A DNA stretch of 64,000 nt from the sequence record OP870147.1, one strand, 5' to 3'. A program made the position numbers and the translations under genes. The notes beneath the pieces are model-generated. The model saw only the letters and a list, made by a program, of their open reading frames with translations. It was not told the origin of the DNA and searched no databases. This document shows, one piece after another, positions 3,048 through 41,174 of the stretch. Source of the stretch: Escherichia phage vB_Eco_F31. Numbering within the stretch: the first letter of the stretch is position 1; the number at the start of each line of letters is the position of its first letter.

Positions 3048-3734
3048 TTAGAAGTCGTGAGTAGAATCGGCTTCCATCGCAATAACATAACTTACTTGAG
3101 AGCTTTCAAACTTAGCTGCAACTTTATCACCAGCTCCCCACAACATTACTTTATAGTTACCTGGCTGAATTTTCATATTAGCCATATTGATTACGAAGTT
3201 AAAGTTGTTAGAACCATCATAATCGGTAAGAGTCAAAGAATACTTAGGACGAGTCAAGCCAGAATCTTCAACTTTATTGTAACCGTTGATAACAATTTTA
3301 CCATCTTTATTTGTAATAGCAATTGTATCAATCTGAAGACCACGTGAAACTCGAAGCAATTGTTGAAGGTCTTCAGCTTTAATTTCAGTAATCACAGAAG
3401 CCACTGGGAATTGAATTGGCTTATTAGGAAAAACAATGGTGCTCTTGTCAGCGGCAGGCCAATAAACTGTGGAACGTGTATCTGCAATTTTAATGTTGCC
3501 ATCAGTGTGCATTGAAATTTCAGCATCATCAGACACTAGACTCAAAATGCTTAAGAAGCTATTCAAATCATAAAGTGCTACGTCAAAATCAATTTCATCA
3601 GAGATATTTGCTTCCGCATAAGTGGTGCCATTAACTGCACGAGTCATAATAAATTTACCTTGACTCAGCAGAATGCCGGAGTTAATAGAGGCAAAGTTTT
3701 TCAGAATAGCGATAGTATCTTTAGACAGTTTCAT
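3048..3734 (-). CDS. 45: sliding clamp gp45
   Basis: 228 aa from ATG 3734 (MKLSKDTIAILKNFASINSG...), T4 gp45-like; track start is TTG 5 codons upstream. Confidence 0.93.
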   Translation of the reverse strand: MKLSKDTIAILKNFASINSGILLSQGKFIMTRAVNGTTYAEANISDEIDFDVALYDLNSFLSILSLVSDDAEISMHTDGNIKIADTRSTVYWPAADKSTIVFPNKPIQFPVASVITEIKAEDLQQLLRVSRGLQIDTIAITNKDGKIVINGYNKVEDSGLTRPKYSLTLTDYDGSNNFNFVINMANMKIQPGNYKVMLWGAGDKVAAKFESSQVSYVIAMEADSTHDF

Positions 3735-17059: not shown

Positions 17060-17465
17060 TATTTTTCCTTTCATCGATTAAATATGCAATGCCAAATACA
17101 ATACATGTAATAAAACCTGTGATACAGATAGAAACCAACAATACTGTACCAAAGAACCAAATCAAGTTATCTTTGGTAGTTTGTTTGATATCCATCTCAC
17201 GAATTTCTATAGCTATCGTATCACCTTTATTCAGAAGCGTATAAAACGATGGCGATACACGCCTGTCAAAAACTCGTCCTTGCTCATCTTTATAGACTGC
17301 AATAAATTCTAATTTAGAATATTTTCCTGTAGATTGGCCTGAGATTAATTCCACTACCTCCACAGGAATTACTTTAGTTTCCATGTAAGTATTCTGGCTG
17401 TTCCAAATGAATGGAATAATAGCAAAAACTAAAGCTGTGATAAAACAACGAAGGCTATATCTCAT
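17052..17465 (-). CDS. hypothetical membrane protein
   Basis: 137 aa, N- and C-terminal hydrophobic helices. Confidence 0.55.
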   Translation of the reverse strand: MRYSLRCFITALVFAIIPFIWNSQNTYMETKVIPVEVVELISGQSTGKYSKLEFIAVYKDEQGRVFDRRVSPSFYTLLNKGDTIAIEIREMDIKQTTKDNLIWFFGTVLLVSICITGFITCIVFGIAYLIDERKNNV

Positions 17466-17770
17466 TATAATGTTCTCTCAAATTTGTGGAAGCATTTACG
17501 GCATTTCAATTTCAAGTTATCAGTTGTCCAGTTAACCAGTTGGACTTGGATAGTTCCACATTCCGGGCATGGATGTTTTGCTGCCGATTTGGCAGCATTT
17601 TCACGTCGTTCAACCATTTTCATTATTTCGTTCCATGCCGGAGGAACAAACTCTTCTTCACCGTGGATTTTATCTCGCTGAACAAATTCAATCTTTGAAC
17701 TATCGTCAATAAACTTAACCAAGCCATGATTAGTGCTCATATCAATATCCTCTAAAAGACGTAGTTTCAT
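17465..17770 (-). CDS. hypothetical zinc-ribbon protein
   Basis: CPECG...CRKC pair of CxxC motifs. Confidence 0.5.
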   Translation of the reverse strand: MKLRLLEDIDMSTNHGLVKFIDDSSKIEFVQRDKIHGEEEFVPPAWNEIMKMVERRENAAKSAAKHPCPECGTIQVQLVNWTTDNLKLKCRKCFHKFERTL

Positions 17771-18720
17771 TATAACACCTCAATGGCATTTCGTAAACCA
17801 TCCGCTTTCGCATTCAGAGCTTTTAACGATTTAGTTTGTTCTGCAATCTGGGCTTCGACTTCTTTCAGACGAGATTTGAGATATTCGCGTTCTTCTCTTA
17901 AGTTATCAACCTTTTCTGCTTTAGGCTCTTTAATAGGCTTAGGCTTATACTCGTTAGGGTTCTTCAACTTAATTTGAATGCGAGAACTGTATAACATTGA
18001 ACCATTATCTTCGGTTTCATCATACATTTCTACCACGTCCATGATTCTTAACATCATGCGAAGTTTATAAGACAGCGAACGAATGGTTTTATTGTGCTTC
18101 TTAATTTCTTCAGCTTTCATGGTGCCGAGATTACGTGAGTAATAATAAGGAACCTGAATATCAATTGATAATGATGCGGTACCATTACCGGTTGGTTTGA
18201 ACACTGCAGTAACCCAATCTTTAGCATGAACTGTATTTGTACGATCATCGCCGCCTGTGAATAATTTACGAGAATGTTTAAAAAGCATATTCACTTGGTT
18301 ATTGAATTCACAAGCAAATTTATCAGCAAATTTAGTTTCAGGAATGGTAGTTAACCAATCAGCCAAATGAGTCTTTTTAACATCATTAACAATAGTGAAT
18401 TCAACCAAATCGGTTTTAGATGTCACAGTTTTAATAAAGCTCGGCTTCATAAAGTTTTTAATGTTATCGCGAGCTACAGTAGAAGATAATAAACGAGAAC
18501 GTTTGAACCATTGAAGCAGTGTCCCTAATGAATGAGAATATGCATTTTGAGTATCTTTACAGATATGATTTTCTTGGCCTATGTATGTACCAAAATCTCG
18601 AAGAATACCACTTACTACATCTCGGTGTGGAACATCAAATCCTAGTGCACCAGAAGCACGTTGGGCATGAACGTTAGCGATAAGACCTGCAAAGTATTCA
18701 ATGTAATGTGAACGTGTCAT
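17770..18720 (-). CDS. hypothetical protein with C-terminal coiled coil
   Basis: 316 aa; heptad-like C-terminus; own promoter cassette upstream. Confidence 0.6.
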   Translation of the reverse strand: MTRSHYIEYFAGLIANVHAQRASGALGFDVPHRDVVSGILRDFGTYIGQENHICKDTQNAYSHSLGTLLQWFKRSRLLSSTVARDNIKNFMKPSFIKTVTSKTDLVEFTIVNDVKKTHLADWLTTIPETKFADKFACEFNNQVNMLFKHSRKLFTGGDDRTNTVHAKDWVTAVFKPTGNGTASLSIDIQVPYYYSRNLGTMKAEEIKKHNKTIRSLSYKLRMMLRIMDVVEMYDETEDNGSMLYSSRIQIKLKNPNEYKPKPIKEPKAEKVDNLREEREYLKSRLKEVEAQIAEQTKSLKALNAKADGLRNAIEVL

Positions 18721-18748
18721 AATATTTTCCTCTCGTTAAGATAAATTC

Positions 18749-18777
18749 ATTATACTCCAACCATCCTTGGTTGTAAA
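18749..18777 (-). promoter_or_regulatory. early promoter / stem-loop cassette
   Basis: TTTACA-N17-TATAAT with hairpin CAACCA-TCCT-TGGTTG in the spacer; 29-nt core identical to 19769 copy. Confidence 0.65.
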
Positions 18778-18782
18778 CTATT

Positions 18783-19742
18783 TTATGATTTTAATGCATT
18801 CATTGCGTTAAAAAGTTTAGAATACTGCAACTGGAGATTCGTTACAACACTTTGAGCATCACGAAGCTTAGCTTGTGCTTTGTCAAGTTCAACAGACAGT
18901 TGGTCCATAGTGGCCTTGATTTGATTGTAATGGTAATCTTCGGCCGGAAGAAGGTCATTAGAAACATTTAGTTTTACTGCAGACAGTTTGCACACATTTG
19001 GCAAACCTTTAAACATTGATTTAGCCGAAGTAGAATAAGCACTTAGGACTTCGGCTTGTTCAATTGGGGTCCCAGTAAGCGATGCTTCAAACAATGCATT
19101 TTCCTTTTTAAGATTTTGATAGTATTCAGAGTCTTTGTGCCACCATGGCGCAGGAACCTTTTTACCAATAGATACACGAGCCTGGATAGCGATATTGCCC
19201 TTATTCTTGATAGGGTCGATAATATTAAGCTCACGAGAATAAATTGCTTTAATCTGGTGAATATTATCACCTAACACTTCCAACGCTTGGTGGAATACAC
19301 GAGCAACGTTATCATTCTTAGGTTTATACGTGAGAGTGAACTCGTTCTCACTGATAACCATGATTTCCAACTTATCGTAAGTATATTTCAAATGTTTCAT
19401 GTTAATTGCTTGAGGACGAATACGAGAAGCAATGGCCATCAGATTGTTAAGGTTATTCCGGAACTGCTTAGCGAAATATTGTCCTTCACCGCCAATACAA
19501 AAATTACGAAGTTTCTGTTTGGCCAATAAACGGCTGAACTCACCATTTTTAATGAACTCTTTAACGGGTGTGTTAGTAACGCATTCAAATTTAGTAAACT
19601 TACGAGAATTAATCCCATAATACGAACAGATTTCCTCAATCTCTTCAGGAGTCTTTACAGGCATACGGATAGGATTAGGTCCTGGAGTATATGCGTTCGA
19701 GGTAAATTCTTTGATAAGTTCTTTACGTGTAATAAAAGCCAT
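18783..19742 (-). CDS. hypothetical protein with C-terminal coiled coil
   Basis: 319 aa; own promoter cassette upstream. Confidence 0.6.
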   Translation of the reverse strand: MAFITRKELIKEFTSNAYTPGPNPIRMPVKTPEEIEEICSYYGINSRKFTKFECVTNTPVKEFIKNGEFSRLLAKQKLRNFCIGGEGQYFAKQFRNNLNNLMAIASRIRPQAINMKHLKYTYDKLEIMVISENEFTLTYKPKNDNVARVFHQALEVLGDNIHQIKAIYSRELNIIDPIKNKGNIAIQARVSIGKKVPAPWWHKDSEYYQNLKKENALFEASLTGTPIEQAEVLSAYSTSAKSMFKGLPNVCKLSAVKLNVSNDLLPAEDYHYNQIKATMDQLSVELDKAQAKLRDAQSVVTNLQLQYSKLFNAMNALKS

Positions 19743-19768
19743 TTTATATTCCTCATGTTGAAAAATTT

Positions 19769-19797
19769 ATTATACTCCAACCATCCTTGGTTGTACA
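19769..19797 (-). promoter_or_regulatory. early promoter / stem-loop cassette
   Basis: TGTACA-N17-TATAAT; same core ttattatactccaaccatccttggttgta. Confidence 0.65.
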
Positions 19798-20793
19798 TCA
19801 TTCCTTAAGAAGTTTTACTACCTGAATAAGATTAGCTCGTTCTGTTTTATTTTTACCGTTTAAGCCTGCTAATCGTGAGATTTCATCGTCAGTCTGTTGA
19901 ATAGTTACATTAAGTTCGTTAATCAAAGCTTCAAAGTATTTGATTTGCTCAGCATGTTTTGATTCAAATTTCTGAACCGGAATAACGTCTTGGTTTAGTT
20001 CATCAATAAGGTCTTTAAGAGCATCTTCTTGGTTGATATCATATTCAACTTCTTTTATTTCTTCAATGAGCTCGTCTTTATATCTAACGTCTTTTAGTCC
20101 TGGTGCTGGTCCTGAAATCTCTTCTTTAAGAGTACAAACATATCCAATACGGTATCCAATGCCGTCTCGCTTGATATCAACTTCGTCGATAAATCCACAA
20201 TGTTTAAGCCCGGAGCCGATTATGTCAAAATATCCTTGACGTCGTCCTTCAAACGTTACACGAACTACTAAGACAGTTTTACCTGCAACCTTTTGAAGCT
20301 CACATTTATAAAAGTCAGTTGAACCTGAATAACGTGGATGAGTTTTAAAGTTCATCTGACGATCTAGGCCCATTTGTAAGCGTGCTGTTACGGCCATAAA
20401 ACGTGTTTGGTTCTCGTTAAGATGAGCAACAATCCATTTCAAAGGCATTTTACACTGTTCACGACCGAACAAATCAGTACGTCCTAGATTACGCAGGATG
20501 TTGTTAGAGTTAATCATCGACAGAACGTTAAGTTTATTCAGCGCGCTGAAGATTCCATCAGCCATTGATTTTCCATAACCTTTACACGCTTTAATAAGTG
20601 CTCGCGGCAGATTAGTATAGATTTCAGACGGCATATGAAAATCAAATTTACTAGTCAGTAATTGATGAACTTGGATAGCAATTTGCTCATAATTAAGTGC
20701 TCTGCGATCGTTATGGTCTTTAAACCACACTTTAATCTGTGAAGCACATAAACCGTTAATTTCATGTTTTACCGCATCAGATGTAATGCTCAT
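19798..20793 (-). CDS. hypothetical protein with C-terminal coiled coil
   Basis: 331 aa. Confidence 0.6.
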   Translation of the reverse strand: MSITSDAVKHEINGLCASQIKVWFKDHNDRRALNYEQIAIQVHQLLTSKFDFHMPSEIYTNLPRALIKACKGYGKSMADGIFSALNKLNVLSMINSNNILRNLGRTDLFGREQCKMPLKWIVAHLNENQTRFMAVTARLQMGLDRQMNFKTHPRYSGSTDFYKCELQKVAGKTVLVVRVTFEGRRQGYFDIIGSGLKHCGFIDEVDIKRDGIGYRIGYVCTLKEEISGPAPGLKDVRYKDELIEEIKEVEYDINQEDALKDLIDELNQDVIPVQKFESKHAEQIKYFEALINELNVTIQQTDDEISRLAGLNGKNKTERANLIQVVKLLKE

Positions 20794-20828: not shown

Positions 20829-20854
20829 ATTATAACCCGTCCTTGGGTAAAGCG
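20829..20854 (-). promoter_or_regulatory. candidate middle promoter
   Basis: CATAAACGCTTTA + 13 nt + TATAAT, same 13-mer as at 4435..4447. Confidence 0.4.
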
Positions 20855-21866: not shown

Positions 21867-22868
21867 TTATTTCAGTAAAGTTACTTCAGAGATTTCTTCC
21901 CAACCATCTTTATCAGTTGAAATAAAATCTGCTACATAAAGAGCCGTACGTAATGATACATTGCGAAGACGAGATACATTAGCCTTCATCCAGGACAATG
22001 CTTTGTACGTTTCTGCATCCGTCAGGCCACGTTTCTGCATCATGTCAGTAGATAATATTACATCTTCAACTCGAACCATAATCTCTTCATTAGAGTGTAC
22101 TCCAAGGTCGAGATACACTGAACGAGATACTAAAGCTTGAAGGTGTGGAGCAAGTTTCGAACCCCGTTCTAACTCTTTATCGATATCAACGTTTGTAATG
22201 AAAACGATAGTACCTTCAAACTCAAATTCTTTATCAATACCCTTATCCTCGAGATAAGATGACGCAGTGCTCCAACAAACTTTGCGTTTATCGCCGGTAT
22301 CTAATGCTGCTTTAAGAAGGTTCAAGATGTCCATATCTGAGAATACGTCAACGTCGTCGATTAAGAGAACGCTGTCTGCGTCACGGTTGAGCCAAAGTTG
22401 TTCGTAAAGGCCAATACCAGAGATTTTACCATTAATGCTTTTGTATTTGATGAAACCATTATCATTAGCGTTATTAAGTGCTTTATCCAGAGAATACGTC
22501 TTACCAATACCGGCTGCACCTGAAATAATGAGTGAACGAATTTTGCCATCGATAATGCCATTCGTCATCATGTTCATTACTTTAAAGCGTTTGTTGATAC
22601 GAGTTTTCATATTTTCAGTGCTTTCAACAACTGCAACTGGCGATGTCTCAACTCCTTCCATTACGATGTCTGATTTGAAGACCCATACTCCACGTTCAGA
22701 GCCATCAATCATAACGAAAATTTTACCATCACCTAAGTGGGAACATTCAGGATTAAGCTTTGCCGGGAACCAGGTCTTTGTGGCAACATAAGAACCAGAG
22801 ATTTCGTTATTACGATAGATACCTTTTTTGATTTGAACGTTGAACATTTTATTCTCCAATTTACTCAT
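21867..22868 (-). CDS. P-loop NTPase (AAA-like ATPase)
   Basis: Walker A GAAGIGKT, Walker B LLIDDVD, sensor-like FITN. Confidence 0.65.
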   Translation of the reverse strand: MSKLENKMFNVQIKKGIYRNNEISGSYVATKTWFPAKLNPECSHLGDGKIFVMIDGSERGVWVFKSDIVMEGVETSPVAVVESTENMKTRINKRFKVMNMMTNGIIDGKIRSLIISGAAGIGKTYSLDKALNNANDNGFIKYKSINGKISGIGLYEQLWLNRDADSVLLIDDVDVFSDMDILNLLKAALDTGDKRKVCWSTASSYLEDKGIDKEFEFEGTIVFITNVDIDKELERGSKLAPHLQALVSRSVYLDLGVHSNEEIMVRVEDVILSTDMMQKRGLTDAETYKALSWMKANVSRLRNVSLRTALYVADFISTDKDGWEEISEVTLLK

Positions 22869-40931: not shown

Positions 40932-40960
40932 TACTATAACATAAACTTACTTAGATGTAA
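40932..40960 (-). promoter_or_regulatory. early promoter
   Basis: TTTACA-N17-TATAGT upstream of ATG 40904. Confidence 0.55.
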
Positions 40961-41145
40961 ATTATTTCAACGTCACCTTTAGCTGCTTTATAACCTTCAG
41001 CCCAAGATACAACAGAGTTTTTATCTGAGGATTCAAATTCAGGCATTGGACTTTCACCAATATTCACACAGTATGTTTCTTCATTTTCATCGAACCAAAT
41101 AATTAAAGTAGTCATTTTGTTTACTCCTCTGTTGTTGATAAACCC

Positions 41146-41174
41146 ATAGTATCACCATCCTTGGTGCTTGTACA
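41146..41174 (-). promoter_or_regulatory. early promoter / stem-loop cassette
   Basis: TGTACA-N17-TACTAT with hairpin CACCA-TCCT-TGGTG in spacer (diverged copy of 18749 type). Confidence 0.5.

Follow-up and report, generated by a model that had tools for sequence, protein, structure and literature searches.

Three tandem genes of the nrdC region in Escherichia phage vB_Eco_F31 as putative diverged paralogs with C-terminal coiled coils

Here we describe three consecutive genes, designated A, B and C, in a 64,000-nt stretch of DNA from Escherichia phage vB_Eco_F31 (sequence record OP870147.1; the whole stretch is called the window, and positions are counted from its first letter). An earlier note on this DNA had pointed to three consecutive open reading frames (ORFs) of 316, 319 and 331 aa, and these are present as stated on the minus strand, all of them annotated as coding sequences in near-identical phage genomes. 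The region is about 99% identical to the Mosigvirus genomes of Shigella phage JK45, vB_Eco_mar005P1 and vB_EcoM_NBG1, and judged by this identity the window is a T4-like Mosigvirus. The locus belongs to the early region, with endonuclease VII and nrdC on one side and nrdC.10 and nrdC.11 on the other; the genes here all lie on the minus strand, and T4 record U76612 carries nrdC.1 to nrdC.11 at the equivalent place. The three genes, the evidence for each and the predicted plans of their proteins are as follows.

17770..18720, minus strand: gene A, 316 aa, NrdC.3 orthologue (ORF, phrog_1435, identity, synteny); residues about 1-252 form the body, 253-266 the linker and 267-316 the coiled-coil tail.
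18783..19742, minus strand: gene B, 319 aa, NrdC.5 family (ORF, Pfam DUF7235 with E 2e-122); residues about 1-215 form the body, 216-266 the hypervariable linker and 267-319 the coiled-coil tail.
19798..20793, minus strand: gene C, 331 aa, NrdC.6 family (ORF, phrog_2257, tblastn, synteny); residues about 1-225 form the body, 226-275 an acidic, variable linker and 281-311 a shorter coiled coil, which a break and a terminal helix follow.

A matches the phrog_1435 hidden Markov model over its full length (residues 1-316, E 1e-105) and also the precomputed PF26897; it is 56% identical to T4 NrdC.3 over the full length and occupies the orthologous position adjoining the nrdC.2-like gene. Shallow profiles gave a single link among the proteins compared, from A to T4 NrdC.4 (hhalign 93.5%, E 2e-7). 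On these sequence grounds A is the orthologue of T4 NrdC.3 and a paralog of T4 NrdC.4. B covers DUF7235 (PF23882) from profile position 1 to 307 of 307 with 408.8 bits against a cutoff of 30, and comparable scores are reached by T4 NrdC.5 (420.6 bits, E 5e-126) and by the Dhakavirus homologue (402 bits). B and T4 NrdC.5 are 25% identical overall, and tblastn from B did not reach T4. C matches phrog_2257 (E 2e-127) and the precomputed PF26899, lies at the orthologous position downstream of the nrdC.8-like gene, and is about 29-33% identical to T4/T2 NrdC.6 (tblastn 32-33% over 92% of the length in T4T/T2); by these matches C is an NrdC.6 family member. The flanking genes are far better conserved towards T4, with 83% identity for NrdC.8 and 77.5% for NrdC.10 as against 25% for B-NrdC.5 and 29% for C-NrdC.6.

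In tblastn searches of other T4-type genomes, the alignment of C runs through its residue 330. Positions 3467-3536 of T4 U76612, annotated as intergenic between nrdC.6 and nrdC.5, have a translation that ends in SKAKSEREKLIKIVDLLKS followed by a stop and matches the C tail; the 275-aa nrdC.6 of that record appears to be truncated through a frame error.

The earlier note had also ascribed to each ORF a C-terminal heptad-like segment, and this was borne out by COILS-type scoring, by comparison with shuffled sequences and, for A and B, by helices in AlphaFold2 models. The corresponding coding regions are these.

17773..17922, minus strand: coiled-coil tail of A, residues 267-316 (COILS-type scoring, AlphaFold2, heptad test).
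18786..18944, minus strand: coiled-coil tail of B, residues 267-319 (COILS-type scoring, AlphaFold2, heptad test).
19861..19953, minus strand: coiled-coil segment of C, residues 281-311 (COILS-type scoring, heptad test).

In COILS-type scoring the tails of A and B reached P of about 1, and the segment of C reached 0.98 with weighting and 0.69 without, after which a G-x-N-G break leads into a short terminal helix; with only about 4.5 heptads, the coiled coil of C scores lower than those of A and B. The scoring matrix was calibrated on the ORFs of the window: at least 21 residues at P of at least 0.9 were found in 6 of the 84 non-overlapping ORFs of at least 80 aa, A, B and C among them, and the strong segments of these three always lie at the C-terminus. 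A matrix-free test, which compares hydrophobic residues at heptad positions a and d with those elsewhere, gave p=5e-5 for A, 1e-4 for B and 0.0026 for C against 20,000 shuffles. Each tail is predicted to be a helix free of proline and at least four heptads long, with its hydrophobic residues in heptad periodicity, and AlphaFold2 modelled one long helix at residues 275-315 of A (predicted local distance difference test score, pLDDT, 77-89) and 266-318 of B (pLDDT about 50-64).

As for the N-terminal regions, which the earlier note had taken to be unrelated, pairwise BLAST and hhalign with shallow profiles likewise revealed no similarity among A, B and C. To diversify the profiles, neighbourhoods were taken from other T4-like genera with the conserved NrdC.10 as anchor, yielding A34 (NrdC.3/NrdC.4), B5 (NrdC.5), C6 (NrdC.6) and X or X2, the bridging single-copy family X. 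With these, however, hhalign aligned A34 with X2 (P=1.5e-11, 231 columns), B5 with X (P=3.4e-8, 212 columns) and A34 with B5 (P=1e-5, 160 columns), and C6 with the merged A34+B5+X2 profile (P=1.3e-9, 96% probability) over 222 colinear columns from residue ~52 through the last residue. Controls with reversed sequences gave P of at least 0.2, and unrelated similar-sized proteins or neighbours P of at least 0.05. After removal of the tails, the bodies were still colinear via family X (P 4.9e-7 to 4.2e-4; at least 0.31 in 12 reversed controls); direct body comparisons of A34 and of B5 with C6 were only marginal (P ~0.03). Furthermore, HMMER searches leaving out one family at a time, with reversed decoys, recovered the left-out families at E 7e-11 to 8e-3, the first decoy appearing at E 0.09. 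The common motifs follow one another in order, namely S-[RK]-x-L-S...L-R-N-F, then F-x-x-F-N-x-x-x-N-x-L...R-L-x-x-G-D-D-R, and then L-x-x-L-x-x-M-D-V-V. The bodies are accordingly homologous and colinear by profile comparison, contrary to the earlier note: NrdC.3, NrdC.4, NrdC.5, NrdC.6 and X are, at this level, one superfamily, within which A, B and C are tandem paralogs that have diverged very far and yet remain colinear.

That unrelated bodies should each have gained the same coiled-coil tail by domain shuffling, giving a modular array, is suggested by the blindness of BLAST and shallow profiles to the bodies of A, B and C, by their placement in three separate families in PHROGs and Pfam, and by the similarity of the A, B and X tails, which in tail-only hhalign are alike beyond reversed controls (B5-X P 1.5e-6, A34-X P 1.7e-4). 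The coiled coil was found in 25/25 tested A34, B5 and X2 members. The tail of C aligns only within the full-length comparison against the merged profile, so that the expected likeness among the C-termini holds for A and B, together with X, and not for C by itself. We nevertheless regard shuffling as very improbable, as the body-only profiles are colinear far below the reversed controls, C6 stays colinear with the merged profile to its end, and left-out families are recovered by HMMER. Moreover, no case was found of the tail joined to an unrelated body; in phage Pinarejo the isolated tail is what a deletion left behind, and the protein P0033 joins two family members (both described below). Of the array envisaged in the earlier note, a body plus a shared coiled-coil tail is retained and the unrelatedness of the bodies is given up; since the whole proteins are colinear paralogs, the shared tail would have been inherited by gene duplication and not by domain shuffling.

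The low-confidence AlphaFold2 models of A and B are parallel in the order of their secondary structure: a helical N-terminal part, a long helix, a three-stranded beta-meander, a helix, a beta-hairpin, the linker and the terminal helix. When the poor A model was compared with BFVD using Foldseek, the NrdC.3 orthologue was matched by sequence (template modelling score, TM, 0.29), and a weak match was obtained to a 329-aa Gelderlandvirus protein (E 1e-3, TM 0.2), which is probably a member of family X.

In comparisons between orthologues the tail was better conserved than the body each time, and the linker was the least conserved part. Identities of tail and body are 67% and 55% for A and T4 NrdC.3, 44% and 27% for B and T4 NrdC.5, 58% and 29% for C and Dhakavirus NrdC.6, and 95% and 70% for C and P0056, with 37% in the linker of the last pair. 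In addition, a terminal motif, L-x-x-[AV]-[ILMV]-x-x-[LIV], is nearly exclusive to the superfamily. This conservation exceeds what a generic hydrophobic core needs, and the tail therefore probably carries a specific interface, which may serve binding to its own kind, to the other paralogs or to a partner common to all, the three being possible. The shared C-terminal tail could thus serve oligomerisation or docking, as the earlier note had supposed.

The linker of B contains a local hypervariable patch at residues ~216-262 (window ~18957-19097; columns ~340-400 of alignment A4): among Mosigvirus B proteins, which are 86-94% identical overall, it is swapped for quite different sequences with insertions and deletions. 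The database 'NrdC.5' of RB69 (P0051) is 95% identical to B and ends in an unrelated sequence without a coiled coil, which suggests a frameshift, genuine or introduced by sequencing.

Word-indexed searches with the three families returned only proteins of T4-like phages, and in an exhaustive profile search the A alignment matched 7 representatives out of 1.84 billion. In the latter search, a link of NrdC.3 to NrdC.5 (E 6e-9) proved to be an artefact, the match vanishing once the hybrid P0033 was removed, and a match to P0062 (800 aa, repetitive, high bias) was spurious. The number of superfamily copies at the locus is 1 in distant genera, 3 in Dhakavirus (single copies of NrdC.6, NrdC.5 and NrdC.4), 3 in this phage and 4 in T4. 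Family X comprises one protein of ~325-350 aa at the locus in Jiaodavirus, Karamvirus, Moonvirus, Gelderlandvirus and Acinetobacter T4-like phages; it carries the coiled-coil tail too, and its gene adjoins nrdC. With a Moonvirus X member as query, tblastn found Moonviruses only, and in Aeromonas, Cronobacter and Vibrio T4-like phages no recognisable superfamily member adjoins nrdC.10.

Gene content at the locus varies: nrdC.4 and nrdC.7 are missing here, an nrdC.6 remnant is found in phage Pinarejo, and a natural nrdC.5::nrdC.3 hybrid gene encodes P0033 (3 contigs, the longest 167 kb). Residues 1-129 of P0033 are 95% identical to residues 146-274 of T4-type NrdC.5, and the remainder is NrdC.3, 78% identical to A 141-316. 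Its junction is a short patch common to both parents, F-N-x-x-V-N-x-L, inside the coding sequence and not in a promoter cassette, which implies deletion of the 3' end of nrdC.5, the whole of nrdC.4 and the 5' end of nrdC.3. In Pinarejo, an unannotated 214-nt gap from nrdC.7 to nrdC.5 retains, at PP925831 5001-5135, only the ~45 terminal codons of nrdC.6, with 60% identity to C 286-330. A mobile tail module, which the match of this phage to the C tail alone had brought into consideration, was rejected, the match being this 3' remnant of a deleted nrdC.6.

The earlier note had reported an identical promoter cassette for two of the three genes. The 26-nt sequence ACAACCAAGGATGGTTGGAGTATAAT does occur in exactly 2 copies in the 64 kb, at 18749-18774 and 19769-19794 on the minus strand (0 expected by chance), before A and B, and the copy upstream of C is degenerate.

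18749..18777, minus strand: early-type promoter cassette upstream of A, TTTACA-N17-TATAAT (repeat and consensus match).
19769..19797, minus strand: early-type promoter cassette upstream of B, TGTACA-N17-TATAAT, sharing its 26-nt core with the A cassette (repeat and consensus match).
20829..20851, minus strand: degenerate cassette copy upstream of C, TTTACCCAAGGACGGGTTATAAT (sequence comparison).
18761-18770, 19781-19790, 20837-20846 and 41155-41164, minus strand: palindromes of the form stem-AGGA-stem.

The promoters directly upstream of A and B match the consensus at 11/12 and 10/12 positions, respectively, a sequence match from which activity is predicted. The C copy is related and shortened, with TTTACC too near TATAAT for a canonical -35/-10 pair. 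A further promoter-like site, TTTACG-N17-TATAAT, lies within the last codons of A (17769-17797, minus strand), where its -10 box overlaps both the stop codon of A and the start codon of the nrdC.2-like gene (17465-17770).

The cassette spacer before A holds the palindrome AACCA-AGGA-TGGTT, and in several early promoters such a palindrome sits just 5' of the -10 box, within the -35/-10 spacer. The AGGA loop is constant and the stems vary with pairing kept, being AACCA/TGGTT in this window and CCACA/TGTGG, AGCCA/TGGCT and TACCA/TGGTA in T4 and Dhakavirus, where the palindrome is also present upstream of T4 nrdC.3, nrdC.4 and nrdC.7 and of Dhakavirus nrdC.6 (one copy lies at ~11945 of locus L004). 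The fourth palindrome of the window (~41166) precedes a 54-aa ORF at 40951-41115. The predicted hairpins have 5-6 bp and -6 to -8 kcal/mol (-6.9; z -0.8 to -1.6), are no better than shuffles and lack a U-tract, and no terminator-like site was found in the intergenic regions of A, B and C. The palindrome may act as a DNA structure in the promoter or as an RNA hairpin in read-through transcripts.

A T4 deletion mutant plates again on E. coli with ECOR17 dsr1 when T4 nrdC.5 is supplied in trans (Srikant, Guegler & Laub 2022, PMC9391042); Dsr1, a SIR2-domain (sirtuin) defence protein, is overcome by this early product (PMC9391042). T4 with a reduced genome is viable after losing large fragments, the nrdC.1-6 block being one of them (PMC9825161). 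By family membership, B is a candidate anti-Dsr1-type protein. The Pfam matches of the tails to phage scaffolding protein and other coiled-coil families, weak and below threshold, would fit scaffold-like or fibre-like structural and assembly factors, in which long coiled coils are typical. We find this hardly credible for A, B and C, as these matches are compositional, restricted to the tail and below gathering scores, the genes belong to the early region, have early promoters of the sigma-70 type in front of them and can be lost from T4 (PMC9825161), and the coiled coil is only 30-50 residues long.

The main rival is a hetero-oligomeric complex, in which the paralogs would be subunits whose tails zip into a heteromeric coiled coil to perform a single early-infection job, such as host take-over or nucleotide/DNA metabolism, perhaps together with the NrdC.10 AAA+ ATPase and the NrdC.11 nucleotidyltransferase. 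The genes are adjacent and apparently co-expressed, the order NrdC.6, NrdC.5, NrdC.4/3 is kept in Tequatrovirus, Mosigvirus and Dhakavirus, and the conservation of NrdC.10 spans the T4-like phages and reaches even jumbo phages. Besides, the tails are conserved within orthologous groups well beyond the hydrophobic core positions, suggesting a specific interface, and differ between paralogs as expected of distinct chains. However, copy numbers of 1 to 4 between genera, with nrdC.4 absent from this phage, would be unusual for an obligate complex, the bodies diverge far faster than the flanking genes, and nrdC.1-6 are dispensable (PMC9825161). T4 nrdC.5 alone rescues the large-deletion phage in trans, the paralogs removed being unnamed in the text of that paper (PMC9391042). 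Taken together, we deem a heteromeric complex unlikely.

The early promoters, dispensability, narrow range, fast divergence, copy number of 1 to 4 and signs of gene decay or fusion in relatives are best fitted by accessory host-range or counter-defence genes. We moderately favour the reading that A, B and C are tandem diverged paralogs acting as oligomeric accessory or counter-defence proteins; they are probably dispensable factors that act in host range or counter-defence, and they do not amount to a new kind of system. The superfamily plan would comprise an alpha/beta body of ~220-250 residues, a short, highly variable linker and a C-terminal coiled coil of ~30-50 residues, which in every member would end in L-x-x-A-hydrophobic-x-x-L. 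The proteins would be made early from sigma-70-type promoters, their tails would make them oligomeric or dock them to a conserved partner, and the fast-evolving bodies would bind targets in the host, of which immune proteins are the most plausible. Through duplication and divergence the phage could in this way acquire several specificities, with B as the candidate member of the anti-Dsr1 type, and the repeated promoter cassettes could give each copy its own early expression as well as short homologies for gain and loss of copies.

A bolder version of the same idea, to which we assign a low likelihood, slightly below that of the heteromeric complex, holds that the tail gathers all copies at one hub, formed by mixed coiled coils among the copies or by one conserved host or phage partner, and that the bodies neutralise different host immune sensors, Dsr1-type NADases and others. 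If so, NrdC.3, NrdC.4 and NrdC.6 would have a counter-defence role still to be discovered, and family X, with its single copy, would represent the ancestral form.

Several observations weigh against the favoured reading of oligomeric counter-defence paralogs. Compared by itself, the tail of C is not significantly similar to the other tails; C itself was not directly matched by the leave-one-out HMMER profile and is linked only through its Dhakavirus/T4 orthologues and the merged hhalign profile. The better-conserved tail fits a conserved partner or a hetero-oligomer equally well as simple self-association. The AlphaFold2 models are poor, with a mean pLDDT of 52 for A (own family alignment) and 43 for B (combined A+B+C alignment); in both, the usable part is the terminal helices only, so that no function could be called from the fold. 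Profiles of the three families gave only coiled-coil noise against PDB sequences (E at least 0.16), so that no relative with a solved structure emerged, PADLOC gave no meaningful match apart from one weak tail-only match for A (DpdH, E 0.008), and no informative Pfam domain was found, the only one among members from other genera being DUF7235 on Dhakavirus NrdC.5. In the literature, no function was found for nrdC.3, nrdC.4 or nrdC.6, and since the body of B is only 25-27% identical to T4 NrdC.5, the specificity of B may differ.

The only group member with a known role is T4 nrdC.5. The present comparison would bring DUF7235, PF26897/phrog_1435, PF26899/phrog_2257, T4 NrdC.4 and family X together as one superfamily built on a body-linker-tail plan, a modest new point, new because PHROGs and Pfam hold the families separate. 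The families themselves are known already as mostly uncharacterised T4 genes, and the result refines knowledge of T4 accessory genes without adding a new type of system. It turns three or four function-less ORFs per phage into concrete host-range or counter-defence candidates, of relevance to the choice and engineering of therapeutic T4-like phages, and the boundaries of body, linker and tail offer a defined construct plan.

Further observations concern neighbouring genes. The NrdC.10 homologue (window 21867-22868, minus strand) is P-loop/AAA-like, with weak matches to AAA_22 and STAND NTPase families, and has conserved counterparts in 1311 phage records, which range from T4-like phages infecting many hosts to jumbo phages such as RaK2; many of these records name it 'thioredoxin' or 'clamp loader'. 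Homologues of nrdC.3 to nrdC.11 are labelled 'thioredoxin' by annotation pipelines, a label evidently inherited from the gene names; among the nrdC-named genes, only NrdC itself is a thioredoxin/glutaredoxin. Just upstream of the single family X gene there is always a gene for a well-conserved ~260-aa protein without a coiled coil, family Y, which is unrelated to the superfamily (P at least 0.05) and has no Pfam domain. Family Y genes were located as follows.

L006 13295-14083: family Y gene.
L007 13702-14469: family Y gene.
L010 7789-8571: family Y gene.
L011 7578-8366: family Y gene.

Compared with the T4 locus, gene order and strand here are the same, whereas nrdC.4 and nrdC.7 are missing, and the acidic linker of C is longer than in Tequatrovirus and Dhakavirus NrdC.6. 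B resembles T4 NrdC.5 as a full-length DUF7235 member, in genomic position, in length class and in its coiled-coil tail, both tails having the common ending K-L-x-N-A-[LM]-N-A-L. A functional analogy, and only that, may be drawn to DSAD1, a phage inhibitor of the defence-associated sirtuin NADase DSR2 (PMC10973363, PMC10981675, PMC11087589), as T4 NrdC.5 too lets its phage overcome a sirtuin defence; DSAD1 differs in coming from a Bacillus SPbeta-like phage group and in targeting DSR2, not DSR1. Finally, the cassettes recall the promoter-early stem-loops (PeSLs) of T4-type phages (Arbiol et al. 2010, PMC2839356; Comeau et al. 2014, PMC4122927). They differ from PeSLs in that the palindrome here lies inside the -35/-10 spacer, whereas the PeSL stem-loop is a terminator upstream of the promoter. 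The likeness lies in the repeated intergenic early-promoter cassettes of the TTTACW-N17-TAYWAT type that contain a small palindrome, A and B each having in the intergenic repeat a strong sigma-70-like early promoter by consensus match; as with PeSLs, the cassettes flank non-essential variable genes in a hyperplastic region, and the design recurs in T4 and Dhakavirus.

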